DNA of 64,000 bases, taken from the NCBI GenBank assembly GCA_016748015.1, contig JAAOMT010000460.1, forward strand, positions 26,820 through 90,819, written 5' to 3'. This DNA comes from Geosiphon pyriformis uo1. Lineage: Eukaryota; Fungi; Glomeromycota. The notes under the pieces are model-generated. The model worked only from the letters and a program-made list of their open reading frames with translations, was not told the DNA's origin and did no database searches. Below, piece after piece: positions 28,301 to 54,185 of this stretch. Every line of letters begins with the position of its first letter. Position 1 is the first letter of the stretch. A program made the translations under genes and the position numbers.

Positions 28301-28802
28301 TCTTGGACTTCAAAAAACTCACCATAAAAGAAGAATAAATAACATGTTTAAAAAAAAATAAGCTTGTTTTTTTGAAGTGGTATTTCTCAATGTTTAACTT
28401 TAATTCTGTTTTTTATAATTATTGAAAAACTTTTTATAAGTAAATAAAATAAGCTTCAAAAATTAAAAAGTAAATATTAGTATTATTCAAATAAACAATT
28501 ACTAATTGTTATAGAAGCTTTTTGTATACAATATTTATAAGTTATTAAAATATTGCTGCTGTATTGCAAAGTCTAAAGTTAAAAAAAACTTGGCTATTTT
28601 TAAGACATTTAGTATGTTGTTAATTCTTGGAAGAGAATAATTTTTTTTAATTATTATATTATTGAGTTAACAATAATTAACATAAAATCTGATTTTCCCA
28701 TTTTTTTTTGACTAAAACTACTAATAAGACCTAAAAACTTTTTAATAGTTAAATAAAACTATTATTAAGTATTTATTGAACTTTTTTTTGATAAATTGGT
28801 GG

Positions 28803-29634
28803 TATTACTCATAAAAAAGAAACAAATATAGGAAAATAGTAGATCAATAGAAAAATAGTATTTAGCACGTGAGCACATTGCTTAGCAATATAGAGCAATA
28901 TTAGAAAATTAGGGCACATTGTTTAGTAATGTGAGCATTGCTCAAAAAATCATAACACATTGCTCAAGAATGTAAGTGATCTCATAAAACATTAATTATA
29001 TATATAGCAATAACATTAGAAGTAGAGAAATGAGAATTCTCTCATTAAAGACCTCTTAGTTTAGATTTTATCTAAGCAACTTTCCATTCACAAATATTAA
29101 TAAATAATTATTCACCATTTCAATCCACTCTTCACTATCAACACTTCATGTTGATAGCAATTGATATTTAACCACACTGAAACAATAGCTCTTGATCATG
29201 GCTATAGATGGATACTAACTTGCACATTGTCTTGGCTCATTTTTTTATTTTCTTTTATTTTTCTTTTCTTGATTTTATTGTTGTATATTAACTGATTAAG
29301 GATTAAAACACTGAGTAATTGACGTTATGAATAGCCTGGTAAAAAACCCAGAAATAAGAATAAAATTATATATATATTAATAGATAGCTTACCAGAAAGA
29401 CACAACTGTCAAAATAAACTGGCCACCAAGTTGAAAACAGAAATTGGGAACACCACACACCAACCAACTACTTCATCATCGAATCTCTGTTCATTATACA
29501 AAAGACTCTCAATCAAACTCTTCAGATAAAAACAATATACCAATATTACCACCATCATCCATCAGAATAAAGAACTGAGCACCAGATTATGGATTTGTTA
29601 TTTGATTTGAGACCCCAAATAATCATCTATAACA
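28803..29634 (+). repeat. 5' LTR of element A (832 bp)
   Basis: Begins tattac (decayed TGTTAC) and ends ataaca; matches 47881-48794. Confidence 0.92.
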
Positions 29635-29636
29635 TT

Positions 29637-29653
29637 TGGTGCTTCTTGTAAGG
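29637..29653 (+). promoter_or_regulatory. Primer-binding site of A (TGGTGCTTCTTG...)
   Basis: TGG-starting motif 2 nt after the LTR. The cognate tRNA was not identified. Confidence 0.8.
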
Positions 29654-29676: not shown

Positions 29677-31750
29677 GTGGCAGAATCAGAAATCATAGGG
29701 ACAAACCATTTAGGATTTGCCAAATCTTTATTTCAACAGTACAGCCAACAATTAAGCTTAACCAACAACTATTATTCAGCAGAATCCACTTTCAACTTTT
29801 ACATCAATGAAAAGATCACAGACTGCCTAGGAGGAACAGTTAATATTGAATTAGCAAGAGAAAACTTTTATAAAGAATTATTTCAACATACCAGTTTACC
29901 AAGAAACTACAGTTTTGTACCAATCATCAGGGAAATTAATCAAACCATTGAAAAGTATACCTAACAACAATTCCCCATTACCTACTCAGACAAAGGCAAA
30001 GAAAAATTGCAAATTCCAGCAGTAACACTAAAACAAATACAACCACCTAATTAGAAAAAAACCCGAATTAAATCACTCACCAATCCATCATACCATTATA
30101 TACCAAGAAGCACCATCAACATCTTATCAACAGGTGTATTCACATTACACGTAACATTAACATTTAGCCGACTCCCATTCCAAAGTAAACAAAAGAAAGC
30201 AGAGTTATTAGGAACTTACAGCAATTATTTTGAAGGATTTAAATCATGATTACCAACGCCATCAGGATTCCAATCACTACCACTTCAACCAGATTTCAGA
30301 AACACAAGTCCTTAGAAAATAATAGAATCAGAAGAAGAAGAAGAAGAAGAAAAAGAATCTGAAGATCAAGAATTTACTTACCAAAACCTGATCACGGAAA
30401 ACTCAGAATTTGGAACCCCGAATCTTCAAACTCAGCAAACTTCAAATTTAGAAAATCCGAAAATTGAAACTCTGAATTTTCAAACACAGCCCAATCAGAA
30501 CGCTCAAAATCCCGACTTTAATAATCAACAACACTTACCTCCAGTAATCGTGATCAATCCACCATTAGCTCCACCAAATGCCCAAGAGCAACAACAGCCA
30601 CAACCACTACTTCAACAACAAATTCAGCAGCAACCACAACCCAACTTAGATCCAATGGCATATGCACCAATAGCCAAACTCGAAAAATTCACCAGTGAAG
30701 AAAACAATGCCCAAGTATGGCTAAATAATGTGGAGAAAGCCATTGCAACTAATGGATAGAATAATGCCAGAGTCATGCAAGCCATCCCATATTTTCTCCA
30801 AGATACTGCCAATTCCTGGTATCAAAGCCTAGTCAACAAATCCCAAGATTTTAATGCATTTAAAATTGAGTTTTTAAGATATTTCAACAACAATAACAGC
30901 ATTAACAGACTAGCAAACATCTTCACTACTATCAAACAAGAAGAAAATAAAGCAGTCACTACTTACTTAGGATGCTTCCACAGGAATCTGCATCAGATTC
31001 AAGCCATTGATGCCAATTATTTTATAGTGGCCTAGATCCTGAATCAGTTTATTTGTGGAATATGCAGTAGTATTCTGCAACACATATGTCCAATGCATCC
31101 TGTCAATTTGCAAGCAGCCGTTACAAGCACCAGAGATTTTAAAGCAACTGAATTAGAAATCAACTATGCCCAAGCCATTAATCTAGTAATGAATGAATCA
31201 TCTGAATTAGATTCCAAATTGAAACAATTTAGTGATTCCATCAATCAGAAATTAAAGGGATACTTAGCTAACAATTGCACAATTTATCAACCACCACAAC
31301 AATGCAATAATTTCAGAAATGCAAATTATTTCCAGAATCAGTTGCATCCATCATCATTGACCAATCAACAGTGGCAACAGGAAACATGTGTTTGCCACTA
31401 TTGTGGTAAACAAAGACACCTACAAATCAATTGCCACCAACACTTAAATCACCAACAATTGGAAAATCAATATCGAAACTCTGATCACCAGTTTCAAATT
31501 CCAAATAACCCACCAAACTTAGAGCCATATCATCAGAATTACTTACCTATAACACAGCAGCCACCTTATCAACCACCAGTATATCAAATGCCAATTTATC
31601 AACCAATGACACTGGCAATTTATCAGCCACAGCCACAACCCATTTATTTACCACAGCCTCAGATAATATATCAGCCCCAACAAATTCAAACACCACCACA
31701 GAACTTACCACAAAATAAAACTCAAAGGCTGAGATTGACCCAACAAAGCT
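29677..31750 (+). pseudogene. Element A Gag: Met-free N-terminal extension, capsid (MAYAPIAKLEKF...), CCHC knuckle, Q/P-rich tail
   Basis: ORFs 29677, 30550, 30775 and 31093 share one frame. CHYCGKQRHLQINC knuckle. First in-frame ATG at 30655. Confidence 0.85.
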
Positions 31751-32959
31751 TGTAACTATATAAAGCAACTGGCATGGAATTGGCCATTCCACTTATAAGC
31801 CCAACAGTTCAAATTATAGGAGATAATTTAAAGATAAATTCAATTACTAGAGGTCCAACTACTTCCTAGAAACGTGAATTCACAGCAAATCAACATTAAC
31901 AACATTCAAGAAAAGAGACCAAAAACCTCCAGTAACAACAATGATATGTAGATTGTTGTGGTATAGTGTAAGAATTATACATGGTGGTGCTGGTGGATAT
32001 TGATTCTTCTTTCTTCTCTTTTCCTTTTTCTTTTGACTTTTCTTCCCATTCCCAAGCTGGTTCTTCTAATTTATAGTTGGTTTCCCAGTTTTAGTTGGCA
32101 TTCTAGGTAAATTCTTTTTTCTACTTTCCTTTGCTATTGTCATCTCACAAAGGTACTGACAGCAGCTCATTGTGTTCTGTGTTGGCCCAGAAAACTTGGT
32201 AGGCTTCCCAGGTAAGTTTTTTCTCTTCTTCCTTAAATTCGATGAGTGGTGTTGTCAAATTAGTGGTCTTGAAATGGCCACACATGGCTGGTACATGTGT
32301 GTGTCAACTATTTTGGCTCAGTTGGAGCTCCTGCATTGTTCAGTCTAATATGGCGTTGGTTTTAGATAACCAATCATTCTCTACTAATGCCTGATATTGG
32401 GTTGCTTTTATCACTAGAACTTTGATGGGAATGATGATGCCATTGACTTCAAAAAGGAAGTCATCAATCTCACCAATAGGAGTTTTGGTTGCTTCATCAG
32501 CAGTTATGATCCTGGCACTGGCAGCATGATCAACTTGGTGACCTAATTGGTCCATGAGTTGTTTTGTAATGATGCTGCCAGCTAATCCACTGTTTAAAAT
32601 CAGTTTAATGAAGTGACCATTAACTTTGGCATCAATGTACATGACAGTAATAGGTTTTTTTTCTAGAACAGCTCTACTAAATAACGGCATGGTTGATGAT
32701 TCTTCAAGTTCAAATGGGAAGATGGTATTCAGAGATTCATTCTTAGTAATAGTAGCTGGCGGAATGTTGCTGGTAAGTGTTGGGTGTTGGTTGGTTTTTG
32801 GGTTATTGGGTTGAGCGTTTTTTGGGGTGACCAGTAGACTTAAATAGTTTTGAGAATTCAGATTTTGGGCATACCTGGTGCCCGAATTCCATTGTCAAGA
32901 TTTTGTTGGTTGTGTAGAAGAACTGGGGATCAGTTGGTAAACTACCATTGACAATCTCC
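31751..32959. other. 1209-bp inversion containing the distal 187 bp of B's 3' LTR and A's protease region
   Basis: 31751-31937 is the reverse complement of about 41670-41856. Re-inverting restores both the B LTR (gttac[a/g]|ttgtag) and the A frame (QQS-WRLSMVV). Confidence 0.9.
31942..32959 (-). pseudogene. Element A aspartic protease region (inverted relative to A)
   Basis: IKLILNSGLAGSII (decayed DSG motif) and YQALVENDWL flap/C-terminal motif in ORF 32340-32690. Confidence 0.85.
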
Positions 32960-33744
32960 TTGTAGTAAATGTCAACTCTTTCCCAGGAATTGCTTATCTG
33001 GAAGCTCACTAAAAATATGTAGTTACTTTGCTATGAAAGTCAACTCTTCTACAGGAATCTTGTCTGTAGGCTACTCTAATAATTGTAATAAGAAAAAATA
33101 AATAAAAGAAATATAAAGAAAATTGAACTCTGTTAAGGGAAATGTTTTCTATCCAGGCCTGGAGTCACTAACAGTTTTACTGAAATTGGTAGCTAATCAA
33201 TTTCAAAATGTTAGTTGGGTTTTGGGAATTTTTCAAGTGCAATAATTAAAGAATGTGGTTTTTCAAATTATTTGATATTTATTTCTTTTTGTGTGTGTAG
33301 AAATAGTTCTAAGTAATAAATCTAAAGTAAGATACATTTTCTCGAAGAGGGAAGCTTTTCTTTTATACAACTTGTTATAAAACTATTCTATGAACTTGAA
33401 TTTTGCTATTTTCTACAATTTTGTTGAACTAAAGATACATTTCAGCAAACTATAAGTTATTTCTGCAAACTATTAGATATTTTGAACTATCAATTATTTT
33501 AGCAAATTTCTACAAATTTGGGCAAACTTTTTGAATGTTACATAGTTCGGAGTATTGCATGATTGATCATTGCAATTAGATTACATTTATGTTATATGCA
33601 AATTGAGTTATTAATTAAATGATAATTTCAGACATTTTGCTAATGTAATAAGTGATAATTTGAATGATAATATATGCTAATTAATAATAGAAATTATAAA
33701 GATAATTTTATGCTAAATAATATCTCTAATTTTGTCTGGTAATA
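32960..33744 (-). repeat. 3' LTR of element B (non-inverted part)
   Basis: Matches about 41857-42643, with differences that are almost all transitions. Confidence 0.92.
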
Positions 33745-34432
33745 TAACCTCCCCCTCAAGACTGAGCTCCGTCAAAGTCCAAGTACTGTCTGTTATTTCC
33801 AAATAATAATCCAAAATTATTGAAGAAATTTGGTCTGAAAATTGTTGAAATTTCAGTTTTGTGAGCTTTCCAATGTATTGAATCTTCAAAGATTGTAAAA
33901 TTGGGTTTTGTAGGACGTTTTCACAGATGTGAAATAGGTCATAAAGTCTAAGAGCAGCTCTTAATTTATAGCAGCTGTTTGTAGATCCAGCTGTTATCTT
34001 GAATTTGTTGTGGAGTTGTTTTTGAATAGCTTTTTTTGTGAGATTTGCTGCTATAAGCTCCAGTTTTTGTTTGTGAAGTGTTTTTCTAATGTAGAAATAT
34101 CTATATATTGGGGGATATTTGCTGTTTTCTTCATTAAGACACAGTTGAAGTTTTTGTTGAATAGTAGTATTTGGCGGAATACTAATAGGGGTGAACAATA
34201 AGTTTTCCCTTAAAGCAAGCTTTAAAAGTTCTGGTAAATAAATTCCAAAATAACTTTTTGTGTTCTTTCTATAAGAGTAATACTTTCATGAATTTGGAGT
34301 TAGATTTGTAACTACTTCTGTTTGGGTATAATTAATATGTTTTCCAGTGATAGTAATAGATAATTCAGATATTGTTTTTAAAGCTAACATTAATTTTTGA
34401 GATAACTGTTGAATATTTTGAGGAATAGTCAT
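33713..34432 (-). pseudogene. Element B ORF3, uncharacterised accessory protein (about 239 aa, one internal TGA)
   Basis: ATG at 34432 (MTIPQNIQQLSQKLMLAL) is in frame with track ORF 33713-34198. It reads through the PPT into the LTR and is homologous to A ORF3. Confidence 0.75.
33745..33760 (-). promoter_or_regulatory. Polypurine tract of B
   Basis: Minus strand reads cttgagggggaggtta immediately before the LTR. Confidence 0.85.
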
Positions 34433-34575: not shown

Positions 34576-35961
34576 TTAAGTGTTCAAGTTGAGGGGTTGT
34601 TCAATAACAATTATTGGTTCTAAGTTTCAGGGAATATCTTCGGAATTGATTAAAGGAGAATGTGTACTAATTTGTGGAATTAATGGTTCAGGATTGTTTC
34701 TGGAATTATAGTGTTTCAAACGATCTTCATGTACAACTTTTGCTAGGATTTTGTTATTAAGTCTTAGCTTGTATAATCCATTGCCTAGAACTTTATGAAT
34801 AAAAAATGGCCCATCCCATTTATTTTTGAATTTTCCACTCCATTGTTTTTTAGCTTTAGTTCTGTGTAAGAGAACTTTGTTTCCAACTTTAAATTCATTG
34901 GTGATTAAAGGCAATTTGTTGTCATGCTGTTTTTTTTGTTGAGCTTGGAAGTGTTCAATATGAGTGGCTGCTATTTGTTGTTTTCCTTCCAACGTGTTAA
35001 GCAGAGTGTAGGCTCTTTGTTGAAATGTTTTCTGGAAATTGTTTTTATCAATTGGTTGTGCTGGGTATGTTTCCACTGTGAAACTAATTGGTAATATTGC
35101 TGTCTTTCCATAAGTTAAATCAAATGGTGTGTGTTTTATGATATTTTGTTTTAGTGTTCTGTATGCTAGTAACACTGATGGAATAAAGATATCCCATTCT
35201 TGCTCAAAATTGGTTGAGACTTTGGTTAATGATTCACACAATGTTCTGTTAAAACATTCTACAAGTCCGTTTGTCTGTGGATGATAGGGTGAAGACAGAG
35301 GTCTTTTGACATTGAATTGTTCACAGATTTCTTGAATTAAATTGTTTACAAAATGTGTTCCTTGATTGGATAAAAGTTTGATTGGGCATCCGTGTCTACA
35401 GATAATGTCTTCATAGATGAAATTTGCTACTGATTTTGTATTTGCTCGTTGAATGGCTCTGGCTTTAGGCCATTTAGTGAGATAGTCTATGACTACTGCA
35501 ATATAACAGTTTTCTTGGTTTGTAATAGGTAGTGGTCTGACTAAATCAATACCAACTTGGTCAAAAGGCTGTCCAACTTTGATTGGGTTTAAAGATTCTG
35601 TAGGGTGAGTTCCTCCTCTTCTTTGACAACTATCACAAGATTTAACATATTCATGAATGTTTTTTCTTATTCAAGGCCAAAAGTAATATTCTAGTGTTCT
35701 CTGAGTAGTGCTGTCTTTTCCTAGATGTGCTGATGAAAAGTCCAAGTGCATGTTGTATAAAATAGTTTCTTTTTTATGTTTTTGTATTAATTTGAGTGGA
35801 CTGTCTGGGTTTCTGAAGTTTTGATAATAAATAATGTTGTTGTGTAAGAAGTATTGTTTGGCTTGTTGTTGTAACTGACGTTTTTTATCTGAGAACCAAT
35901 CTGTTGGAATTGTTAATGTCTCCAGATATTGTTTAAAATTGTTGTAGTTTTCGGGATTCAT
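34576..35961 (-). pseudogene. Element B integrase, separate ORF (461 codons)
   Basis: Own ATG (MNPENYNN). HHCC region (MHLDFSSAHLG...CDSC), IDLV, DQGTHF, NGLVE, GPF motif, C-terminal LEPIIVIE. No chromodomain is seen. Confidence 0.88.
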
Positions 35962-36010
35962 TGTTTGTTGTTTTGTTGCTGTTAATTCAAATGGGTGTTG
36001 GTTCTGTTTT

Positions 36011-39000
36011 CTAATCTTGTTTCATTCTTGAGAAACAATCAACATTGGTGTGGAGTTTTTCTGGTTTGTGGTGTACAATGTATCAATAGTTGGCTAAAAA
36101 TCTTGTCCATCAGATTTGTTTTGTATTCAGTTGGGTGTTTTTGTTCTGAAGCCTTTTGAGTCCAATATTATCAGTAATAATATCAAATTTTTTAGGCCTG
36201 AGATAAAGATTGAAGTGGTGTAGGGCCCAAATTACGGCTGCTGTTTCTAGTTCTGTGGCAGAGTAGTTTTTCTCAGCTGGTTTTAATGTTCTGCTAGTAT
36301 AAGCGATTACTTGCTCATTTCCATTGTCATCTAATTGTGATAAGATGACACCAAAGACAGTATAAGAAGCGTCTGTAGCTAGTTGAAATCAGTTATTGAA
36401 GTCTGAATAGGCTAGAATTGGAGCTGTTGTCAGCTTTTTCTTGAGAATTTCAAAAGTTTTTTGGTGTTCTTCCATTCATTTGTATTTGATGTTTTTAGTA
36501 ATAAGTGGGTTAAAGGGTTTTGCAATTTCTGAGAATTCTTTGATGAATTTTTGGTAATAGAAAGCTAATCCAATAAATCCTCTCAATTCTGTGGTATTTT
36601 GTGGAGTTTTAAAGTTTTTGACAGTGCTAATTTTTCCAGGGTCTGGTTTAATTCCATCTTTGCTCATAATGTGGCCAAAAAAAGCCAAACTCGTTTTTCC
36701 GAAGTAGCATTTTTCGATGTTCAGTTTCAATCCTGCTTTTTGTAATCATTGAAAAACTTTTCGCAGGTGTTTTAAGTGTAATTCAAAAGATGGTGAATAA
36801 ACATCAGTATCATTGAGATAGACAACTACTGATTTTCAAAGGAGGTCTTTGTAAACAACATCTATGAGTCTTTGGAATGTTGCTGGTGCATTGCATAATC
36901 TGAAAGGCATTATGTTAAACTCGTAATTTCCTCTTTAAGTGGTGAATGCTGTTTTGGGGTGATCTTTGGGATCCATGGCAACTTGCCAGTATTCACTCTC
37001 TAAATCTAATGTTGAAAAGTATTTGGACTTTTCAAGGGCATCCAACATGTCATCAATTCGGGGAAGAGAGTAGGCATCTCCAATGGTAATGCTGTTGAGT
37101 TGTCAATAATCAACACAAAATAGTATCTTTCCATTTTTCTTTTTAACTAGGATCACAGGTGAGGCCCATGGACTCATTGATGATTAAATAAGCCCATTGT
37201 TAAGCATCCATTGTATTTCTTCTTGGATAAATTGGTGGCTTTCTGGAGCAACTCAGTAGGCTTGTTGTCGCCTTGGTTTGGCATCTCCTGTATAGATTTG
37301 GTGTTGAACCAAATTGGTTCTTCCTAAATCATTGTTGTTTTTGGCAAATATATCAGCAAATTCTGCAATTAGCTCTTTGAGCTGGTTCTGTTGTTGTGGT
37401 TCAAGTTGTTCTATGTTGATTCGAGATAGTTTTTCTATGACAACATGGTAGTTTTTAGAGCTGGGGTTTGGGTTGATTTTTGGTAATGAATGTTCAAAAA
37501 TTTCCAAGAAATTGGGAACTGTTTGGGGTAGTTCTTGTTGAAAAATGTTACTGTGAATGACTCCAATTTCTAAGTTATTTAATAAAACTATGGGATAATT
37601 GTTGGGATTGTAAAAAGTAACTCGGACTTTCTTTGTTCCTTCTGGAATATAAATGTTTGGGATCGAGATATTATGTTTCAAGCAGACTTGTTCATTAGAT
37701 TCAAAAATTTGTTGTGTGGTTGTTGGCTTTGAGCAGGTGTAGATTTCCGGATGTTCCCCAAAGGGTAAAATAGTAATTGGTTGTGGAAGTCATAGAATCT
37801 GGTGAGATTCATTTTGTTCATTAAGAGCTATGTTTACTGGAACTGTGAATCATCCAGTTGAACCAAAACCATTGGTTCCTTTTTCACTTTTTCCCAATTG
37901 TTTTCTTTGACTGACTAATTGTAAACCCAAAATGTTGATTAAGGGTAAATAAATAGCTTGAGCAATTTTTTCAACATGTTTAATCTGAAAAGGTTTATTG
38001 GTTTCATTTTGTAACATAATTGTAATGTCTTCTGTATATCCCACATCTATGATTCCTCCTCTAACATTAATTTCTTTGCTTGCCAATAATGATTGTGAAG
38101 CGATTTGGACTATTGCTCCTAATAAGATTTTGAGGGCAATTTTAAGATTGATTTTTGTGAGTAATTTAGATTTAAGAGTAAGGGTATCTTTTCCTGGATA
38201 TCTTAGATTGTATCCAGCATTAATTTCGTGGGCTTTTTCAGGCTTTATTCTTTGTCCATTGTTGTTGAAGTATTTGAGTTGTGAAGCAGGCTGATTTTTG
38301 ATGAGATAAATGGGTGTGGCTTCTATTTTTTCTGTTGCTTCAGGTTTTCTGAATTCAATTTCATATTCATCACTTTCACTGGGCAAAGGAATGCTAAGAG
38401 CATAGCATTCAGGACACCATTGTTCATCACAAAGCATTATGCATTCCTCACATAATTTAATGTTCATTTGCCCTAGCTATTGAGCTTGAGCTTCTTTGGT
38501 CAGGTAGGTGTAACTGGCAATTTGGTGATATACTTCTACTTCATTTTTGTAGTTGTATCCAGCAATTTCAAAGATGTATGCAATGTATTCTGATTCTTTC
38601 ATTTGACAAACATTTTCTTGAGTGGCTCCGTTGATTAAAGCCATTGCTAAATCGAAAATCATTTTGGCATCATGAGAGTAATGGTACAGTTTGTTGAAGG
38701 CACTATTGTAAGCAGCATCAAAAGATGTTCCTCTTTTGACTTTTTCTGAAATTGATAAAGCATATTGGCAGGTTTGATCGCAGACTCCTCTTCTCATTGT
38801 TACATCAATCTAATTGTATTCTTCTGGTAGCATATTTTCACAAGTCAAACAAGAGGTGTTGTCCCATTTTCTATTTTTTTTTATTAGGTGGCCCCATTGT
38901 TTTCTGTGACAAGCCTTGCAGTAATAACAAGTATGATTTTCATATTCTTCTTCAGATGAAATGCAGGCTTCCATTGATGAAAGTTTTTTGTGGCAATCTT

Positions 39001-41623
39001 TGCATTTGAGTGGAATGTAAGGGCGTTGTTTTTGTGGTTCTGGCTTTGAGTAAGAGATATTCCATCCAGGGGTTTCAGGTTTAGAGTGTGGAGTAAAATG
39101 TTCTTGTTCAGTTTTATTGGCCCAATTGGACATTGATCCAAGAGCCATGAATGTTTCGATTATTGGTTTTTCTTCTTCTGGTTCGAATTCAAAAGCTGGG
39201 GCTTTTTCGGAGTGTTTGTTAAATATACCACAAGTGGCAAGTACTTGGGCATGTTGTCCTTGGTAAGAGATTTGTAGTTCTTGGGTTTCTCAGTCTAATT
39301 TTGAATTGGCTTTTTGAAGCCAGTCATTTCCGACAAGAGCTTGATACTAAGGAGCATCCATTACAAGAACTTTGACTGAAATGGTAATTCCATCAAGAGT
39401 GAATGGAAAATTGTCAATTTCTCTTACTGGAGTCTTTTTTATGCCATCAGCAGTGACAATGATTGTCTGAGCTGATCAGTCAACATTTCTCTTTAACTGT
39501 TGCATCAACTGGTAAGTAATAATACTTCCAGTGGATCCACTGTCTAGGATTAAGCGAATTGTTTTTCCTTCAACTTCAGCTTTAGTATACATAGCTGTGA
39601 TTGCTTTCTGTTCATTTGCAGCAATATTGCTGAGTAAAAATAGTGATTCATTGGCTTTGAACTCGAAAGGAAAGATATCAGAAAGATTGGCATTTTCAGC
39701 AATTCTGGCTGGTAGAATAGTGGTGTGGTTATGAGAAAAATTTTGTTGTTGTGCTGCAGCTCTACCTTCCGAGAGTACAGTATGGTAAAAATTTTGTTCT
39801 TCTGACATTGTTAAATAATTGGGTTGAGTGTGATAGTGGTTGGGTTTCAGTTGAGTGGAATTTTGGGAAACCAATTGGTTGTTTGAACTGATTCTATTGT
39901 TGTTTACTTGGTATCAGTTTTGTGATGTGAATTGATTTTGTGTAATCAATTTTCGAGCAAGTACCTGATAATATTGTGTGGATGATTGTTGGTATTGCTG
40001 TTGAATTGGCTGTGGGGCAGGCTGATAATAGTTATTTTGGTATTGGAGTCTTGGTGGATAGTAAGCTGGGGGTGGTGGTTAATAATAAAATTGCTGTGGT
40101 GGAGGATAACATTGATTATTTCTCTGTTGTTGGTCTCATTGCAATTTTCTACAATTGCATTTCTAGTGTCCTGGAATTTCACAATAATGACAATTTTGGA
40201 TTTGGTTGTTGGATGGTGGTCCGAAGTTGTTTTGATTGCATCATTGTGAGGGTTGGTATCTTTGTGGTTGTTGTGATTGTTGTGGCTGCTGTTGTTGCTG
40301 TTGGTTGGTAAAGTAATTTTCAACTTTCTTGGTTAATTGGTCAATCTTTTCTTCAGCTGCTGAGCTGGTTTTTCTAATAACCAGGTTAACAAATTTGGTA
40401 CAGTTGGCTTCTTCTATGGCTATTTCATAGTTTTTCACCTGTTGAATAGCAGTGGCTAAATTTTCTGGTGCATGTGAGTGAACTTTTTTGATGAGTTTGT
40501 CTTTTAGTCCAGCAATGAATTAATCCAAGATTTGTGCATTGGAGTAGTATTCATTGGTTTCCAATTGGTGAATCCTTCTAAGCAGTTTGTTGAATTTCTC
40601 AAGATAGGTCATAACTAATTCACTTGGTTCTTGCTTGATATTTTGGAACTGATTTCGAAGAGTAATAGAAGTGTTATTGTTAGTGAACTGTTCTAGAAAA
40701 GCAGTTTTGAATGCTTCTCAGTGTTCTGGTGGGACTTCCAAGTTTTCAAACCATTCACCAGCTGTTCCTTGTAAGAAATATGGGATTGTTTTTAACATTC
40801 TGGCAGCATTCCAACCATTTGCATCTCCTGCTTTAGAGACTTTGTCAAGCCATTTTTGAAGACTGGTTTCACTGTTTTTTTCTGTGAACTCAGGAATTTT
40901 TGCGATATATGTAGAGACCATTTCTTCTTCATTTTCAATGTCTTCTGTTTCTAATTCTGCTTTAGTTTCTTCATTTTCCAAGCTTTCTGAATGATTACTT
41001 TCGTTTTCCTGTAAGTAATTAAGAAGGTTGGTGCTAGTTGATATTGGTTCTTGTTGTTAAATAAAGCTTTTAGGTAACTGAAAATCTTTTATTCTTGAAA
41101 ATTGAATAAGAGGTGAGCTTGGTGTTTGTGGTTGAGCAAGTAAAGCTGGAAATAGTGTGATTGAGAGTGGTAATTTAAAGCTGGTTCCTTGTTCTGGAGT
41201 TTGTAAATGTTTGGCAGTAGTTTTAGGTGTATTGGAAGTAGTTTTGAGTTTTTGTTTCTTTTTTTCTTTTCCTTCTTCTGTTTCCAATTCAAAACCAAGA
41301 GAAAATTTCTGTTCTACTGAGTAATTCTCTTCACAATACTGAATGATATTGAAGTTGAGTTCTTGGAAGTATGTTTCAAGTGTTTGACTGTTAAAATCCT
41401 GAATGTTTAGATGAGAGTGATATACTAAGCTTTTATATAAGTTGTGTCTAACTTCTGAAATATTGTAGTCTTCAAAAAGATAATTGTTGATACAATTTTC
41501 AATGTATTGGTAAAGTGTTTTCTTGAATGTTTCAATTCCATTTAAAATGTTAAATTTCTGCTTACAGTGGGTGTAGATTGACTGATAATACTCTAGAGTT
41601 CTTGAATCTGTTTGAGTCACCAC
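36011..41623 (-). pseudogene. Element B Gag-PR-Cys-rich-dUTPase-RT-RNaseH polyprotein (single frame, nonsense-disrupted)
   Basis: ORFs ending at 41668, 40981, 40438, 39874, 39148, 38797, 38467, 37681 and 36730 share one frame. Motifs: ILDSGSTGS (PR), GGIIDVGY and GFGSTG (dUTPase), [14 protein letters not shown] and YLND (RT), TDAS (RH). Ends FSRMKQD*. Confidence 0.9.
37850..38270 (-). pseudogene. Trimeric-type dUTPase domain in B pol
   Basis: AGYNL (motif I), SQSLL (decayed II), GGIIDVGYTE (III), KIAQAI (IV), KGTNGFGSTG (V). Confidence 0.88.
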
Positions 41624-41650: not shown

Positions 41651-41667
41651 TTCGTGGAAGAGCACCA
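41651..41667 (-). promoter_or_regulatory. Primer-binding site of B (TGGTGCTCTTCC...)
   Basis: TGG-starting motif 2 nt inside the 5' LTR boundary. The tRNA was not identified. Confidence 0.75.
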
Positions 41668-41669
41668 AA

Positions 41670-42643
41670 TGTTACCGGAGGTTTTTGGTCTCTTTTCTCG
41701 AATGTTGTTAATGTTGATTTGCTGTGAATTCACGTTTCCAGGAAGTAGTTGGACCTCCAGTAACTGAATTTATCTTCAAATTATCTCTTATAATTTGAAC
41801 TGCTGGGCTTATGAGTGGAATGGCCAATTTCATGCCAGTTGCTTTATATAGTTACGTTGTAGTAAATGTCAACTCTTTCTCAGAAATTGCTCATCTGGAA
41901 GCTCACTAAAAATGTGTAGTTACTTTGCTGTAAAAGTCAACTCTTCTACAAGAATCTCGTCTGTAGGCTACCCTAATGATTGTAATAAGAAAAAAAAATA
42001 AAAGAAATGTAAAGAAAATTGAATTCTGTTAAAGGAAACATTTTCTATCCAGGCCTGAAGTTACTAACAGTTTTACTGAAATTGGTAGCTAATCAATTTC
42101 AAAATGTTAATTGGGTTTTGGGGATTTTTCAAGTGCAATAATTAAAGAATGTGGTTTTTCAAATTATTTGATATTTATTTCTTTTTGTGTATGTAGGAAT
42201 GGTTCTAAGTAATAAATCTAAAGTAAGATACATTTTCTCGAAGAGGGAAGCTTTTCTTTTATACAACTTGTCATAACACTATTCTATGAACTTGAACTTT
42301 GCTATTTTCTACAATTTTGTTGAACTAAAGATACATTTTGGCAAACTACAAGTTATTTCTGTGAACTATTAGATATTTTGGTAAACTATCAATTATTTTG
42401 GCAAATTTCTACAAATTTCGGTGAACTTTTTGAATGTTATATAGTTTGGGGTATTGCATGATTGATCATCACAATTAGGTTATATTTATGTTATATGCAA
42501 ATTGGATTATTAATTAAATGATAATTTCAGACATTTTGCTAATGTAATAAGTAATAATTTGAACAATAATATATGCTAATTAATTATAGGAATTATAAAG
42601 ATAATTTTATGCTAAATAATATCTCTAATTTCATCTGGTAACA
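41670..42643 (-). repeat. 5' LTR of element B (974 bp)
   Basis: TGTTACC...GGTAACA inverted termini; matches the 3' LTR. Confidence 0.93.
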
Positions 42644-42647
42644 TTGT

Positions 42648-45600
42648 CCAAAACTGGTGTGTGTCAATTGCGGCAAGAAATTGTTATCAATGGGCACATG
42701 CTGTGGCAATAATAAAGAATACCAAATAGTAACCAAATTTTACTATCATGTGTGTATCATAAAACACTTTGGAAGATCAAAACAAGTAGGAAAATGGGAT
42801 AATAAACCATGCTTGGCTTGTGGAGAAACTTTTCTGGACAAAGGAATGTGAAATAATATTTCTGGGCAAGAAAAAACGTGCAACAAATCATGTCAATACA
42901 TGATTCTCATAAGTGACTGGGTGAGAAAAGAAACACCCATAGACATTGCCTAGAGACAAGCCGTCAAATGTCTGGATGAGTGCCCACATGACAATGATGA
43001 AATCTGGTAAATAGCACTCACTAAAATTGAAGGAGTGACCCCAAAAGAAATAAAAACAATAAAAAATAATCTACCTGAACCTATAAAACTTGACTGGAAC
43101 CCAGAACCAGTCATAAATCTCCTAGATCCAAAACAATTCCACAAACATTATCAAGAGCTAGCACCTACCAGAGAAGAACAAGAGCAACATTTGGAGCAGT
43201 TGAATACTCAGTTATGTCAACATTGCTTAATTCTCTGTGACTTTCAATATTGTAATGAGTGTGATCTTATTTACAATCCACTACCATGCATGATCTACAT
43301 GATCCCAAAAGAAGAACCAATCAACAGCTGCACATTGGAATTGGAATCAGTTTTCAATCTCAATTCAAACTCCAACAATGATGATAACAAAAACACCAGT
43401 TCCAGCTCTGTACAATATGGCAACAAAAATATCAATGATTCAGACTTTGATTCAAATCCTGAAATATACATTGCACTTTTTGATCTCTCTAAGAAGCAGG
43501 AACTCAAATGGTATAATAATAATAATGAAGATATCATGCCAGAACATACATATAATACTGATGTAGAGTTTGATCTAAGATATCCAGAAAAAGAAGCCAT
43601 CAAATTGGAACCAAATTTGTGCACATATATTGATTTCAAAATAGCTTTGGAAATTCTAACAACAACCATAGTTCAATTAGCATTTAAGAGTAGTTTAGCA
43701 AAAAAAGGAATCAACATCAGAGGAGGAATAATTGATGTGGAATACATAAGAAATATTATCGCTATGTTACAAAATGACTCAAAAAAGACCTATATTATAA
43801 AGCCAAATGAAAAGATAGCATAGGCAATATTCTTACTTCTGGTAAAAATAGCTCAGTTAGTTCCAGTGGGAAGGAGAGAAGAATTAGGTATAACTGCAAG
43901 AAGAATACAGAGATTTGGATCAATGGGTAGAATAGACATACCAGTCAATATGATAGAAAAAGAAATTGTTGACAAAAAAGAAATTATCTCAACTCATCAA
44001 TTAATTTCTATTCCACTATATGATCAGTATATGTTAGCCATAAAAAAGGAAATAAAGAATCAAGCTCAATTGTTTGAAACAGAAGCCACAATTTGTGAAT
44101 CAGGAGAAATTAGACTCACTAATCTTTACATATTAGCCAAAAGCCCCAAAAACATCAAAATTCCCATCTATAATGCAACTGAAAAGATCATCAAAATACC
44201 AAAGAGAACTATCATTGAATATTTAACCATTCAAGTTAAGGATCAACCACCAAACCACATTCCAGATTTTCCACAGCTTTGTAAATATGTAGACATTATA
44301 TTACAAACTATCTACGGACGAAATGAATGTTATCCACTCCAAACTGAACAATTGGAACAGATAAACATAGAGAATCTAGACTCACTCCAACAGATGCAAC
44401 TAAAGATATTACTCAACAATTTTAATGACATCTTTGCAAGTGAAAATGAATTCAGCTGCACCAACATCATTTAGCATTAGATCAAAACTGGAGATGTGAT
44501 GCCAATTAAACAAAAAACATACAGAGTACCACCAACTAGCCATGAGATTATTTGTTAAAAAATTAACCAAATGCTTAACAATGGGCTAATTCAGCCATCA
44601 ATGAGTCCATGGTTATTACCAGTGGTACTGGTCTGTAAAAAAAATGGAAAAATCCGTTTTTGTGTAGACTACTGAAAACTGAATAGAGTAACAAAAGGTA
44701 ATAGCTATTCAACTCCAAAAATCCAAGAACTATTTGATGCTTTTGAAGAGAATAAATGGTTCTCAATACTGGATTTAAATAGTGGTTACTGACAAGTAGC
44801 CATGGATCCAGCTAACAAAAAAAAAATAGTATTCACCACAAGAAAAAGAAATTTTGAGTTTGAAGTCATGCCATTTGGCTTGATAAATGCTCCAGCAACA
44901 TTTCAACAGTTCATGGAAATTGTCTATACTGGATTACTATGGAAATCAGTAGTTGTATACTTGGATAACATCAATGTGTTCTCAAAAACATTCGATGATC
45001 ATCTGCATCATCTCCAACAAGTGTTTGAAAGATTAAAAAGAGCTGGATTAAAGCTAAATGCGAACAAATGTTTCTTTGAAAAAACTGAATTCAAGTTTTT
45101 GGGACATGTGGTGAGCAAAGATGGAATCAAAACAGATCCAGACAAGATTGAGATTGTTAAAAACTTTCCAGTACCAAATAATCTCACAGAATTGAGAGCA
45201 TTCTTAGGATTTGCCAGATACTACTACTGCTTTATCAAAGACTTTTCCAAAATAGCTTAACCACTACACCAACTCCAAACAAAGAATGTAAAGTACAAAT
45301 GGACAGAAATCCAACAAGAAGTTTTTGACATATTAAGAAAAAAGCTTATTCAAGCTTCAGTATTAATGTATCCAGACCATAGCAAACCATTCATAATTAC
45401 CACTAATGCATCAGGCCAAGCATTGAGAGCAGTACTTTTACAGAAAGAACCTAATAGAAGAGAGCATCCAGTAGCTTATGCCAGTAGAAGTTTAAATCCA
45501 GCTGAGAAGAATTATGGAACTCCAGCACTAGAACACTTAGCTATCTATTGGGCTGTCATTAAATGGAAAAAATACTTAAGCCAAAAGTTTGAAGTATATA

Positions 45601-45761
45601 CTAATCACAAAGGATTGACTTTAATTCAAAAACAAAAATTTAGAGACAATTGCCATGTCAGATAGAAAATAGAACTTTCACTATTCAATTATACAGTACA
45701 TTATAAAAAAGAAAAAGACAATAGAAATGCTGATGGATTATTACAAATGAGACAAATCTAA
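42648..45761 (+). pseudogene. Element A pol continuation: Cys-rich domain, dUTPase, RT, RNase H
   Basis: ORFs 42657, 43035, 43866, 44802 and 45366 share one frame. Motifs: GGIIDVEY and RFGSMG, MPFGLINAPATFQQ, YLDN, TNASG, PVAYASR. Ends ADGLLQMRQI*. Confidence 0.9.
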
Positions 45762-45791
45762 AAACATTTCAACCCAAAAATATAACAAAAA

Positions 45792-47174
45792 ATGAACACA
45801 CAAAAATACCAACAACTCCAGCATTATATAAATACTCAATCATTTAAGGAGAAATTATCTCAAAAAGAACAAAACAACATAAAACAGCAATCAAAATATT
45901 TTATCAATCATCAAAATATACTTTACTGGAAAAACAGAAGAAATCCAGACCAACCAATCAGAGTAATTACAGAATCAGAAAAAGAAACAATATTGTTTAA
46001 CATACACTCAGATCCAACAGCAAGACATTTTCATAAAGAAGCAACCATAGAAAGAACCAGAAAAAGATATTATTGGCCATCAATGTATTCAGACATCATT
46101 CAGTATGTTCAAAACTGTAATGCTTGTCAAAGAAGAAGAAGAACAAAACCCAGTAAACTATTGAGACCAATTAAAGTAAGACAACCATTCAACTATATTA
46201 GAATTGACTTAGTAGGACCATTAACAATCACCAGTAGAGGCAACAGATATATTGCAGTAGCTATGGACTATCTCACAAAATGGCCAAAAGCAAAAGCCAT
46301 TCAAAGAGCAGATGCAGAATCCATTGCCGAATTCATCCATCAAGATTTGATATGTCAACACAGATGTCCAAAAAAATTACTATTAGATCAAGGAACTTAT
46401 TTTGTGAATAGAACATTAACAAAATTAAGTCAGAGATTTGGAATAAAAAGACCATTATTATTATCATATCATCTACAAACTAATGGACTAGTTAAAAGAT
46501 TCAATAAAACATTGTGTGAAGCAATTACCAAACTCAGTCAAAAAAACCAAAATGAATGAGATTTGTTTATACTATCAATATTATTTGCTTATTGGACAAT
46601 GAAACAAGATACTACACAAGCAACACTATTTGAATTGGTATATGGTAGAACAGCAATATTACCAGTTGAGATAGAGGTCAACACATATCCAACTGAACCA
46701 ATAACAGAAACTAATTTCCAAGAAACATTGTTAAAAAGAACATATAAATTAATGAAAACACTAGAAAGCAAATGACAAAAAGCAGCTGATAACATCCAAA
46801 AGTCTCAGAAGAAGCAAAAAAAATGACATAATAACCAATTACCAGATAAACCAGTTGAATTTAAGATTGGAGACAAAGTATTTCTACATTGTACCAAAGC
46901 AAAAAAACAATGGAGTGGAAAATTTGACCCCAAATAGGATGGACCATTTCACATAAAAGAAATTTTTAGAAATAAAGCTTATAAATTAAGATGGGACAAC
47001 AAAATCTTAGCCAAAACAGCACATGATAATCGACTGAAACAATATCACCAGATAGCATCACCATCTACCAATAACATTCCACAACTAAGAGTACAAAGAA
47101 TACTAATTCAACCAAATAAGATTCCATGAGATCTGGAACCAATCATAGTTATTGAACCAAACACATCAAATTGA
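45792..47174 (+). pseudogene. Element A integrase, separate ORF (460 codons)
   Basis: Own ATG (MNTQKYQQ). HSDPTARH...CNAC, IDLVGP, DQGTYF, NGLVKRFN, DGPF, C-terminal LEPIIVIE. Confidence 0.88.
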
Positions 47175-47229
47175 ACAACCAAAAAAGTATATAAAGACAC
47201 AGGACATATGACAAAAACAACCAAGAAAA

Positions 47230-47865
47230 ATGGAAATACCAGATTATATCCACACTATAACTCAACAATTGTTCCAGGCCTTAAGTAAACAACAATTGGA
47301 CATGGAAATTGTTATTAGCAACCAAATAATTTGCTATCGAAACATCCAAAGAAAGACAAAAAATACACCATATCAGCAACCACCAAAGAATGATAAAAAA
47401 TGGTCAAATAACATAATAGAAAAAATAAAAAACACTTTTGGGAAAATACCTATTATGGCACCAACAAAAGAACTTACAAAAGAGAATTGGAAGCAATAGA
47501 CAGAACAACTTCCAATATCATACTGTTACTATCAGTTAGGTCGAAAGTTGAATATTCAAGAATTGTATATTGACAAATCCAAGAGAGTATTTAACCAAAA
47601 CATAATACAGCAAATTGAAAAATTTATTGGTAAAAAGATGAACTTGACACTACATGTGAGAACAATTTATCGACTACACAACATATTTCAGAACTATCCA
47701 GAAATACTGTTACACTTGGACATGAAAACTATAACTATTAACCAATAGGAAAGAATAAACAATGTACAAGTAGAAGACATGAAAAATAAAGTCGAACAAA
47801 CAATACTAGAAAAAAAAGTATTAGAGCTAATTCAGAATAAAGATTTCAACAGAGCTCAATATTAA
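47230..47865 (+). pseudogene. Element A ORF3, uncharacterised accessory protein (about 211 aa, two internal TAG)
   Basis: ORFs 47230 and 47548 share a frame that continues to FNRAQY* at 47863-47865; homologous to B ORF3. Confidence 0.75.
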
Positions 47866-47880
47866 AAAAAGAGGAGATAA
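47864..47880 (+). promoter_or_regulatory. Polypurine tract of A
   Basis: aaaaaaagaggagataa directly before the 3' LTR. Confidence 0.8.
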
Positions 47881-48794
47881 TATTACTCATAAAAAGGAAA
47901 CAGATATAGGAAAATAGTAGACCAATAGGAAAATAGTATTTAGCATGTAAGCACATTGCTTAGCAATGTGAAGCAATGTCAGAAATTATGGCACATTGCT
48001 CAGCAATGTGGAACAATATTAGAAATCATGGCACATTGCTCAGCAATATGGAGTGATGTTAGAAAATTAGTGCACATTGTTCAACAATGTGAGCATTGCT
48101 CAAGAAATCATAACACATTGCTTAGGAATGTGAACAATCTTGTAGAACATCAATTATGTATATATAGTGGTAATATTAGAAATAAAGAAATGAGAATCCT
48201 TTCATTAGAGACCTCTCAGTTTAGATTTTATCAAAGCAACTTTCCATTCACAAATATTAATAAATAATTATTCATCATTTCAATCCACTCTCCATTATCA
48301 ACACTTTATGTTGATAGCAATTGATACTTAACCATACTGGAACAATAGCTCTTAATTATGGCTATTGATGGATACTAACTTGCACATTGCCTTGGCTCAT
48401 TTTTTTATTTTCTTTTATTTTTCTTTTCTTGATTTTATTGTTGTATACTAATTGATTAAGGATTAAAGCACTAAGTAATTGATGTCACAGATAGCCTGGT
48501 AAAAGACCCAAAAATAAGAGTAAAATTATATATATATTAATAGATAGCTTACTAGAAGGGCACAACTGTCAGAATAAACTGGCCACCAAGCTGAAGACAA
48601 AAATTGGGAACACCATGCACTAACCAACTACTTTATCATTGAATCTTTGTCCATTATACAAAGAACTCTCAATCAAACCCTTTAGATAAAGACAATATAC
48701 TAATATTACCACTATTATTTATCAAAATAAAGAACTGAACACCAGGTTACGGATTTGTTATTTGATTTAAGACCCCAAATAATCATCTGTAATA
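47881..48794 (+). repeat. 3' LTR of element A (914 bp)
   Basis: Matches the 5' LTR and carries two extra 40-bp units. Confidence 0.92.
47951..48132. repeat. 40-bp tandem array with a 19-bp palindrome CACATTGCT-N-AGCAATGTG in the A LTR
   Basis: Units start at 47951, 47991, 48031 and 48072 (partial). Confidence 0.9.
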
Positions 48795-49788: not shown

Positions 49789-52700
49789 CTATGTATAATT
49801 TTGATTTTAAGTCTATTTAATAAAATAATTGAGTAATTATTAAAATTGTAAAATGTAACTTGAAACTTTTTATTCTTTTTGGAATATAAATATTTGAGAT
49901 CAAAATTTTATGTTTTAAGCAGATTTGTTTATTTAATTTAAAAATTTACTGTATAGTAGTTGGTTTTGAACACATATATATTTTGTGATATTTTTTAAAA
50001 AGATGAAATAATAATTAGTTGAAAAAATCAAAAATTTGGTAAAATTTATTCTATATATTAAAAACTATATTGACTAAAACTGTAAATTATCTAATTGAAC
50101 CAAACTTTTGAGTTTTTTTGTTACTTTTGTTTAATTGTTTTCTTTAATTGACTAATTGTAAATTTAAAATATGAATTAAGGATAGATAAATATCTTAGAC
50201 AACTTTTTAGCATGTTTAATTTTAAAGAATTTGTCTATTTTATTTTATAATATGATCATAATATTTTCAGTATATTTTATATCTATAACTTTTTTTTTAA
50301 TATTAATTCCTTTGATTGCCAATAATAATTGTAATATAATTTGTATTATTGCTTTTAGTAGAATTTTGAAAGCAATTTTAAGATTGATTTTAGTTAAAAA
50401 TTTTGGTTGGAAAACCAAAGTATTTTTTTCTGAATACTATAAGTCATATTTAGCATTAATGTTATGGATTTTTTCTGGCTTAATTTCTTAATTATTGTTA
50501 TTAAAGTATTTAAGTTGCAATATTGGTTGATTTTTTATTAAATAAATTAATGTTGTTGGTAAATTTTTTTCTAATTTAGGTTTTCTAAATTTGATTTTGT
50601 ATTTATTGTTTTTAATAGATAATAGTATACTAAAAACATAGTATTCTAGATATTATTAGTTATTATATGACATGACATATTTTTTACATAATTAAATATT
50701 TATTGATTCTAATTGTTAAATTTAAATTTTTTTAAAGAAATAGATATAACTGACAATTTAATAATACTTTTTTACTTTACTTTTATAGTTATATTCAATA
50801 ATTTTGAAGATATATTTAATATATTTAATTTTTTTATTTGATAAATATTTTTCTAAGTAGTTTTGTTGATTAAAACCATAGTAAAATCATATATTATTTT
50901 AGTATTATGTAAATAATAATAGAGTTTGTTGAAAGCATTAATATATGCTGCATTAAAAAGTGTTTTTCTTTTAACTTTTTTGAAAATTAACAAAGCATAT
51001 TAACAAATTTAAATGCACACTTTTTTTTTCATTGCAATATTAATCTAGTTGTATTTCTTTAGCAGTAATTTTCTACATATAAATCAGTATGTGTTGTCTT
51101 ATTTTTTATTTTATTTTAGGCTGCCAAATTATTCACTGGAATTTTTTTAAATTATTTGTTAAATATTTTACAAATAGCAGATACTTGGATGTATTGTTTT
51201 TAGTATAAGATTTTGAGTTTTTAGTATTATTTTTTGGGTTTTTGGGTTTCCAATCTAAATCTATATTGGCTTTAAAAAGCCAATTATTTTCAATAAAAGC
51301 TTGGTATTAAGATGTATTTATAACTAAAATTTTTACTTGAATGGTGATTTTATTAATTGTAAAGAAAAAGTTATCAATTTTTTTAACTGGTGTTTTTTTT
51401 ATGCTATTGGCTGTAATAATAACAGTTTGAGTTGATTAGTTAACATTTTGTTAAAGTTGTTGTATTAATTGGCAGTTAATAATACTTTTAGCTAATTTAT
51501 TATTCAAGATTAAGCAGATTTGTTTTTTTTTTACTTTAACTTTAATGTATATAACAGTGATTGCTTTTTGTTTTGTAATTGCTGTATTACTAAGTAAGAA
51601 TAATAATTTATTTGCTTAAAATTTGAAAGAAAAAATATAAAAAAAATTGGTATTTTTAACAATCTTTGCTAATAGAATTGTGTAATTGTTGTTAGAAAAG
51701 TTTTGTTTTATTGTTGCAATTTCATTTTTAAAAAGTACAGTATTCTAAAAATTCTGTTCTTTGAATATTATTAAATAGCTAAGTTGAATGTAAAAATAAT
51801 TGGGTTTTGTTATAATAAATTTTGAAAAATTAGTTAGTAGTTAGTATTAACTCTGTTGTTGCTTGAAAATTAATTTTGCTGTATTTTTTTAGCAAGTACT
51901 TAGTATTGTTAAACAAACAATAACTGTTAATACTATTGTTGAATTGGTTGTAAAACAAACTAATAATAGTTGTTTTAATATTAAAATCTTGATGAATAAT
52001 AAACTAGTAGTAATAGTTAATAATAAGTCTATTAAAATTAAGAATAATGTTAATTATTTCTTTGTTGTTGATCTTATTATAACTTTTAACAATCTTATTT
52101 TTAATGTTCTAAAATTTTACAATAATATGAGTTTTGAGATTAATATTTTTGTTGCTGCTGTTATTAATTTGTAAAATAGTTTTTGACTTTTTTAGTTAAT
52201 TAGGTGATTTTTTTTAGCTGCTAAACTGGTTTTTCTAATTGCTAAGTTAACAAATTTGGTATAATTGGCCTTTTTTATGACTATTTTATAGGTTTTTACA
52301 TGTTAAATAGCTGTGTTAAATCTTCAAAAACATGTATACAGACTTTTTTAATTAGTTTATTCTTGAGTTTAGCATAAATTAGTTCAAAATTTAAGCATTA
52401 AAGTAATATTTATTGGTTAATTTTTCTAAGTAGATTATAATAAATTTAAAAGATTCTTGTTTTATGTTTTTAAACTGATTTCAAAGTGTAATTAAAATAT
52501 TATTGTTGGTAAACTGTTTTAAAAAAGCATTTTTTGAATGTTTGTCAGTTTTTAAAAAATTTATTTAAGTTTTTAAACCATTTTTTTGCTGTTTTTTGAA
52601 AGTATGAAATTGCTTTAAGTATTTTTGCTATATTTTATCCATTTACATCTTTTGTTTTTGAGACTTTATCAAGCTATTCTTAAGAACTGATAGTAATATT

Positions 52701-53504
52701 TTCTTCTGTAAATTCTGAAATTTTTGTAATATATACAGTTTTTATTTTTTTATTTTTATTTTTATTGGTTTTTTTTTAGTAAATTCAAAATATTTCTTTA
52801 TCATTTAAGTTTTAGAATGATTATTTTGGTTTTTAGCTAAGTAATTAAGAAGATTAGCACTAGTAAATATAAGTTTTGGCTATTAAGTAGAATTTTTAAG
52901 TAAGGTAAAATCTTCTGGTCTTAAGAAATAAATAAATAAAAAATTTGATATTTGTAGTTATCTAAATAAAATAAAAAATAATATAATTGAAAATAGTAAT
53001 TTGATACTTGTTTTTTTTTAGATGTTTGTAAGTATTCGGCAGTTATTTTTGGTGTATTGTGTATAATTCAGTTAATTTGTGAAGTTTTTTTTATTTGTTT
53101 TTTTTTATTACTATTTTTTGCTTTCAATTTTAAGTCAAAAAAGAATTTTATTTTACTGAATATTTTTTTTATAATACTAGATGATATTAAAATTAAGTTT
53201 TTGAAAATAGATATTAAGAGTCTTGCTATTATAATCTTCAATGTTTACACCAAAATAGTATAACAAGTTTTTGTAAAGATTGTATTTGACTTTTAAAATA
53301 TTATAGTCTCCAAAAAAATAGTTGTTGATATAATTTTTAATGTATTGGTAGTGTTTTTTTGAAGATTTTAATCCTGTCTTGAATATTAAATTTCTGTTAC
53401 AATGTATATAAATTGACTAATAATACTTTAAAGTAGTTGTATCTGCTAAAGTCGCTATTTTGAAGTTTGTTGTTGTTGTATTTTTTCTGTAAAAAAGCAC
53501 CAAA

Positions 53505-54185
53505 TATTACTGGAGATCTTTGGTCTTTTTTTTGAATGTTATTGTTATTGTTTTGCTGTTAATTTTAATTATTAGAAGCTAGTAAACCTCTAATAACTAA
53601 ATTTATCTTCAAATTATCTTTTATAATTTGAACTATTAAGACTTATAAGTAAAATAGCCAATTTTATACTAGTTATTTGTATAATTATTTTATAGTAAAA
53701 GTCAACTATTTCTTAGAAATTGCTTATTTAAAAGCTTACTAAAATGTGTAATTACTTTGCTATAAAAGTTAACTTTTCTATAGAAATTTCATCTGTAAAC
53801 TACCCTAATGTATATAGTAAAAAAATAAAATAAAATAAAAAAAAATGTAAAAAAAATAGAATTTTTGTTTAAGAAAATTGTCTTCTGTTCAAGCCTGAAG
53901 TTATTAATAAATTACTGAAATTGATAGTTAATTAAATTTCAAAACATTAGTTGAAATTTTAGAAAATTTCAATTCGTAACTAATTAAAACAAATTATGTT
54001 TTTTTTGAAGTATTTAATGCTTTATTAATTTGTACTAAAAGGCTTGTTCTAAGAAAGATAATTCTAAGATAAAATGTATTTTTTCGAAAAAAAAAGCTCT
54101 TTTTTTATACAACCTGTTATAATACTAGTTTTTGAATTTGCATTTTTTTTTGCTATTATTTTAATAAATTAAAAATATATTTTGG
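53505..54185 (-). repeat. 5' LTR of element C, interrupted by D
   Basis: Matches 24461 to about 25125, then similarity stops abruptly. Confidence 0.8.

Follow-up and report, generated by a model that had tools for sequence, protein, structure and literature searches.

A putative GUG-started, methionine-free extension of Gag in two Ty3/gypsy families of Geosiphon pyriformis

Two families of Ty3/gypsy elements of the fungus Geosiphon pyriformis, here called A and B, carry between the PBS and the capsid-coding part of gag a long open extension that opens with a conserved GTG codon and has no in-frame ATG up to the capsid start. Translation of gag is probably initiated at this GUG, and leaky scanning would let one RNA encode two forms of Gag, long and short. 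Use of the GUG, the leak and the two proteins are inferred from sequence comparison among the many decayed copies of both families.

Organization and decay of the elements

The window, a stretch of 64,000 nucleotides of Geosiphon DNA, holds one copy each of A and B as nested, decayed Ty3/gypsy elements, B on the minus strand sitting inside A on the plus strand (Table 1). Both have paired LTRs with the PBS after the 5' LTR, as in Ty3/gypsy elements (Metaviridae). Protease, dUTPase and integrase were detected (protease and integrase by Pfam; the dUTPase of element A at 43011-43820), and integrase is last in pol. A stretch of element B recognised by eye in the translation, from its motifs, is taken to be its RT/RNase H. 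The Gag fold is marked by PF03732 and PF19259 on the close relatives P0003 and P0006 and on many matches, and it is these Pfam families on close relatives together with the order of protease, dUTPase and integrase that assign the elements to Ty3/gypsy. A tRNA gene search of the 64-kb window found none to name the PBS primer. A TATA-like run lies near 29357 in the 5' LTR of A, and the 5' LTR of B has a TATA, TATATAAA, at 41850 and an ATG at 41833 on the minus strand.

Table 1. Features of elements A and B and of copy C in the window
Feature	Position	Strand	Remarks
Element A 5' LTR	28800..29634 (start approximate)	+	89% identity to 47881-48792 (3' LTR); TAACA end, then PBS
Element A PBS (TGG...)	29637..29650	+	directly after LTR end
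Candidate GUG start of A, AAA-GTG-G	29677..29679	+	Val in 71 of 90 gene models
Predicted N-terminal four-helix domain of A, ~103 aa	29677..29985	+	stop at codon 96 in the window copy
Linker of A	29986..30654	+	basic patch, S/T-P motifs, acidic run, Q/P-rich end; 3 stops in the window copy
Capsid-start ATG and Gag CA/NC of A	30655..31751	+	cut by inversion at ~31752; PF03732/PF19259 on relatives
Remainder of element A: dUTPase, RT region, integrase, 3' LTR	43011..48794	+	
Element A 3' LTR	about 47879-48794	+	89% identical to A 5' LTR
Element B 5' LTR	41670..42644	-	93% identity to 32960-33745 plus inverted piece 31752-31937
Element B PBS (TGG at 41667)	41654..41667	-	
Candidate GUG start of B, AAA-GTG-G	41621..41623	-	Val in 98 of 112 gene models
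Predicted N-terminal four-helix domain of B, 104 aa	41312..41623	-	model pLDDT 84.9, pTM 0.78
Linker of B	40922..41311	-	basic patch, S/T-P motifs, acidic end; 1 stop in the window copy
Capsid-start ATG (40921), Gag, protease, dUTPase, RT/RNase H, integrase of B	34627..40921	-	
Element B 3' LTR	33745-32960	-	its end inverted, at 31752-31937
Copy C, third B-family copy, heavily decayed	52150..54200	-	ATA at the GTG position, near 53457

The pol region of element B (37253-39600, minus strand) codes in order for a protease, a Cys/His-rich stretch of ~300 aa, the dUTPase, a further stretch with weak likeness to a protease (Pfam Spuma_A9PTase, E 1.9e-5) and RT, and Gag through RNase H are in one frame in the window copy. 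A 1.2-kb inversion (31752-32960) flips the end of the B 3' LTR and the protease region of A, so that the A protease is now found on the minus strand at 32340-32891. The U3 of the A LTRs has 40-nt tandem repeats (28873-29000; 47951-48138) whose copy number differs between the two LTRs, and that of B a 20-nt repeat at 42335-42405.

Both window copies are dead, their extensions having four (A) and one (B) in-frame stops, which the original prediction had missed; the other two frames of the same segments have 20 and 16 stops in A and 8 and 21 in B. Differences within LTR pairs are nearly all transitions (82/86, and 48/51 in the U3 part of B). Zones of 9-22% GC at 16000-18000, 20000-28200 and 49800-58000 are copies of the same elements with extreme C>T/G>A decay. 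Such AT-rich copies lie beside others that are mildly decayed, a pattern compatible with a RIP-like process or with prolonged decay by methylation. The window also has, at 13329-15539 (plus strand), a long interrupted reading frame containing a CCHC zinc knuckle. It is possibly ORF1 of a non-LTR element, and a second copy, decayed, lies at 17734-19379. A fragment of a Sel1-repeat protein (Pfam PF08238) is at 11275-11982 (plus strand). Named protein matches are all Geosiphon pyriformis gene models, among the best 120 of 362 and in 120 of 120 for the extensions and in 73 of 73 for the capsid start. Hundreds of Geosiphon "hypothetical proteins" are dead copies of the elements with spurious first exons, and the ATG frame of the B LTR (41833-41675, minus strand; 31774-31932, plus strand) serves as first exon in many automated gene models.

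The extension and its N-terminal domain

The original prediction located the motif AAA-GTG-G just after the PBS in both elements, followed by a methionine-free frame ending exactly at the capsid. Each of these points held: the motif is at 29677 (plus strand) and 41623 (minus strand), 40-44 nt from the PBS (TGG at 29637 and 41667), and the frame runs from the GTG for 326 codons in A and 234 in B to its first ATG, which is the capsid start (30655 and 40921). Several in-frame Met codons would have spoken against a non-AUG start, and the extensions of six subfamily references (226-320 columns) have no majority Met. The length from the first valine (V1) to the capsid Met is 226, 239 or 244 aa in the B subfamilies and about 310-320 aa in A, always in frame.

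Differences between the B and C copies that are not attributable to decay fall on the three codon positions of the extension in the proportion 26/22/44 (p 0.011), compared to 10/7/21 in the capsid and 20/20/24 in the LTR control; among contigs aligned to A, 5/6 non-decay differences are at third positions. The extension of both families is thus read, from its pattern of change, as a real conserved coding sequence. Pooled p-values in these families are too small since subfamilies share sites.

It is highly improbable, and largely refuted, that the extension forms a leader, untranslated or vestigial, and that Gag starts at the capsid AUG. Its length kept in frame in both elements, its few stops, the third-position bias, the in-frame length differences between subfamilies and a predicted fold conserved at 23% identity all argue against such a leader. 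It would agree with the in-frame stops of the window copies and with the finding of no homologue of the extension outside Geosiphon gene models among the best 150 of 193 profile matches, and the scarcity of ATG described below would follow from a long AUG-free leader by itself.

The first ~100 residues of A and B align, as had been noticed from the translations (BLASTP, 29% over 63 aa, E 4e-5). Profile-profile comparison covers 93 columns at 23% identity with a probability of 40% (E 3e-4), whereas 30 controls with shuffled columns reached no more than 3.1% and the reversed profile 0.3%; tblastx with masking did not report the homology of the A and B domains. These alignments suggest that the domain is weakly homologous between the two families. 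AlphaFold2 gives four helices for the B domain from a mixed alignment with the GTG read as M (scores in Table 1) and four helices for the A domain from an A-only alignment (pLDDT 85.4, pTM 0.77; two of five models poor), at matching places in the separate models. Both domains are predicted to be the same four-helix bundle.

No credible match to the domain was found in Pfam, PDB sequences or the ESM Atlas, nor by Foldseek on PDB and BFVD at E<=0.001. VIA-align gave none at Z>=8, its best hits (Z 7.2 and 6.8) being unrelated helical chains, and retroviral matrix structures are absent among the matches listed. The full Gag hits generic Gag clusters in the ESM Atlas with values under 0.9. A profile search of 1.84 billion representatives gave 193 matches, the best 150 of which comprise 45 already named Geosiphon proteins and 105 new ones; 104 of the latter fit family A or B and one is a repeat artefact. 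No relatives with DNA were found in the viral contigs or prokaryote genomes scanned, and two metagenome loci considered as relatives were rejected as unrelated bacterial genes.

The domain is net acidic (charge -2 to -6) and its residue 2 is A, V or T. After it, A and B alike have a KGK-type basic patch, S/T-P motifs and a tail that is acidic or Q/P-rich. No membrane or signal segment was found in the extension, where the highest 19-residue hydropathy in six natural copies is 0.67-1.55, none of these maxima lying near the amino terminus.

Codon 1 and the two putative starts of gag

Beside the valine majorities of Table 1, position 1, in the gene models that allowed it to be placed, is Met in 15 and Leu in 4 of family A, and Met in 10, Leu in 3 and Ile in 1 of family B. 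Most of the evidence on the families, these counts included, stems from automated annotation, whose models lean towards open frames and may include false introns; gene finders also favour ATG starts. The Leu cases sit on predicted splice joints. In ungapped copies Met is found in 11/68 (A) and 10/104 (B), close to the median share of G>A-type change at other sites (14.5% and 9%, respectively). Decay of V1 went 21 times to Met and once to Ile, against 57 changes to Ile and none to Met at the seven other Val sites of the domain, which shows that V1 alone is GTG. On a tree of 68 copies, built quickly, weakly resolved and covering family A only, the 11 Met rows need 11 changes, a number as low in 500/500 shuffles. 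Since Met occurs at about the background rate of G>A decay and is scattered on the A tree, the comparison of copies indicates that GTG is the source state of codon 1. Met reaches its highest share after Asn (5 M, 8 V), probably because AAC-GTG forms a CpG. Copy C has at this position ATA, the product of a double G>A change.

The argument that a G>A bias makes descent of the GTG from ATG implausible is borne out by the family majority of Val/GTG, and a consensus ATG, which would have contradicted a GUG start, was not found at this position. The GTG as a decayed ATG, a variant of the leader explanation above and equally improbable, was rejected given the Val majority at position 1 and the G>A direction of decay. 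Contigs aligned to the window list no variant at 29677, but known variable sites within ~25 nt of alignment beginnings are also unlisted there; just upstream of 29673 the window A copy differs from the other copies.

V1 is preceded by K, N or T according to subfamily, and as all their codons begin with A the -3 base stays A; the codon after V1 begins with G (+4 G). Initiation at GUG with A at -3 and G at +4, a context favourable to non-AUG starts, has precedents, as have leaky scanning across about 895 nt and Gag extensions begun at non-AUG codons (PMC3542737). No stimulatory hairpin after the GUG is significant relative to shuffles (z -0.9 and +0.8). Upstream of V1 the frame varies: 72, 4 and 9 copies of A fall in the three classes and 17 are unclassed, of 102, and B has two frames in gene models and the third in the window copy, the classes being taken from gene-model peptides in which false introns could hide. 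Read-through from an LTR AUG across the PBS was rejected because of stops and of this variable frame.

Initiation at the AUG of an LTR exon that is joined to an AG immediately ahead of the GTG, so that splicing removes the PBS, is unlikely. The usual start site lies 25-35 nt from the TATA. The ATG of the B LTR, 17 nt past the start of TATATAAA, begins an open frame of ~53 codons that lasts until the LTR ends, and a GT-AG intron connects it in frame to the extension in a dozen or so B gene models (e.g. P0026, P0035, P0041, P0087). Families A and B both have a CAG ahead of the GTG. The putative B leader intron measures only 35 nt, however, and the ATG is closer to the TATA than the usual start site. 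Both window B LTRs have a TAA in the ATG frame, and the joint is out of frame in the window's B subfamily. The A LTRs share no ATG after 29208, later ATGs differing between the two, and the CAG-to-GTG frame varies in A copies as given above. Splicing leaves the fixed GTG with its -3 A unexplained. A spliced upstream exon, named in the original prediction as evidence that would overturn it, thus fails in family A and in the window's B subfamily; the dozen gene models would accommodate it in other B copies.

The position of the GTG close to the PBS, where retroelement RNAs hold structure, could also mean that the codon is kept for RNA structure, packaging or priming and that another near-cognate codon or a non-scanning route starts the extension. 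The murine leukaemia virus (MLV) CUG lies itself within a stem-loop (PMC5120145) and several near-cognate codons are used by fungal cpc-1 (PMC5487733). This explanation is very unlikely: in A as in B frame and sequence are conserved from the GTG onwards, the nucleotides directly preceding it are variable apart from the -3 A, and RNA around the GTG folds no better than shuffles.

The extensions are poor in ATG in all frames, with 3 in 978 nt of A against 102 in 5088 nt downstream (p 2e-5) and 3 in 702 nt of B against 124 in 6423 nt (p 0.002), or ~3-4 per kb against ~20 per kb, with no depletion of antisense CAT. Under a dinucleotide-preserving null the scarcity is weaker (p 0.022 for A, 0.083 for B), and the ATG depletion is part of a wider depletion of TG, CTG being low too. 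Positions that could give rise to an out-of-frame ATG are less frequent in the extension (23/1651 columns) than in the capsid (57/1218), and those of the extension decay like CpG (33% vs 15%; 20% vs 15% in the capsid). Such decay, of NAC and not NAT, implies that the source codons mostly avoided ATG. The original prediction had likewise seen CpG decay in the few out-of-frame ATGs of A; a few potential sites, such as D-G at codon 29 of B3 (6/77), depart from this pattern. The ATG at 40974 occurs in the window B copy alone (99% of the aligned depth differs).

At the capsid start Met is kept in 187/226 copies, the remainder having mostly Ile, and its distance to the first capsid motif varies by subfamily. 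It is fairly unlikely that only long Gag is made from genomic RNA via the GUG, the capsid Met being a processing boundary or the start of a short protein from a separate internal transcript as for Ty1 p22. The weak -3 base (C) at the capsid AUG of A favours such an arrangement, and in Ty1 an internal RNA does encode a shortened Gag that is inhibitory (PMC5408680). It leaves unexplained why out-of-frame AUGs are scarce across the extension and back right at the capsid AUG, and the varying distance from the capsid Met to the first capsid motif is expected for a start, not for a structural residue.

With the GUG start and leaky scanning, ribosomes would in part initiate at the conserved GUG, in strong context, and produce long Gag, as well as Gag-Pol, which is in frame in copy B. 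Those passing the GUG would cross 700-980 nt poor in AUG and start at the AUG of the capsid boundary, yielding a minimal CA-NC Gag. The most speculative step is that short Gag builds the particle and a minority of long Gag adds a targeting function. That the basic patch might act as a nuclear import signal is a guess, made because it follows the domain.

Relation to known systems and significance

Among the closest known systems is MLV glyco-Gag, where an upstream in-frame CUG and leaky scanning lead to an extended Gag beside the AUG-started one (PMC3542737 and PMC5120145); the Geosiphon elements would share the non-AUG start upstream and in frame with a downstream AUG for Gag. Glyco-Gag has a CUG and 88 additional aa with a signal/membrane anchor, follows the secretory route and belongs to an enveloped retrovirus, whereas the extension of a fungal retrotransposon has a putative GUG, 226-326 aa and a soluble predicted four-helix domain. 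The analogy drawn originally thus extends to the mechanism of the start and stops at the membrane: a membrane-anchored glyco-Gag function was rejected for want of a hydrophobic or signal segment. PEG10, a mammalian gene derived from Ty3/gypsy, has a CUG-started form 34 aa longer (PMC2800197), but it is a domesticated single-copy gene while A and B are multi-copy mobile elements that add a whole domain. As the defining details of glyco-Gag and PEG10 are lacking, the extension is a member of neither.

The retroviral MA domain is helical. The A/B domain would likewise be a small helical domain N-terminal to CA, the position of MA (PMC6525542); it differs from MA in having no Gly2 for myristoylation, in being net acidic and in the location of the basic patch after the domain. 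The long and short Gag forms proposed here from one gag gene recall Ty1 p22/p18, but in Ty1, a member of the Ty1/copia lineage, the short form is the C-terminal half of Gag, made from an internal RNA with AUG starts, and full Gag is AUG-started (PMC5408680). Neurospora cpc-1 offers a fungal example of a long conserved open extension from non-AUG codons, as the putative start would be here; it is a host transcription factor using several near-cognate codons and tied to uORF control (PMC5487733).

Among the papers listed in a search of the open literature there was no non-AUG Gag extension in a mobile LTR retrotransposon, no GUG-started retrotransposon Gag and no description of these elements. 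Ambispora and other Glomeromycotina have undergone comparable expansions of LTR elements (PMC11952901), and families A and B could already be named in TE libraries in the supplements of that paper. We tentatively propose that the GUG start and the AUG-free leader of 700-980 nt dose long Gag, with a helical domain of new fold, into particles of minimal AUG-started Gag, a strategy reached independently of gammaretroviral glyco-Gag, and that long Gag may target the particle (e.g. to the nucleus) or counter host silencing. Non-AUG extensions of Gag have been described for one retrovirus and one domesticated gene. If true, the proposal extends the strategy to Metaviridae, brings in an unannotated helical domain at the matrix position and shows that AUG-based annotation misreads such elements.
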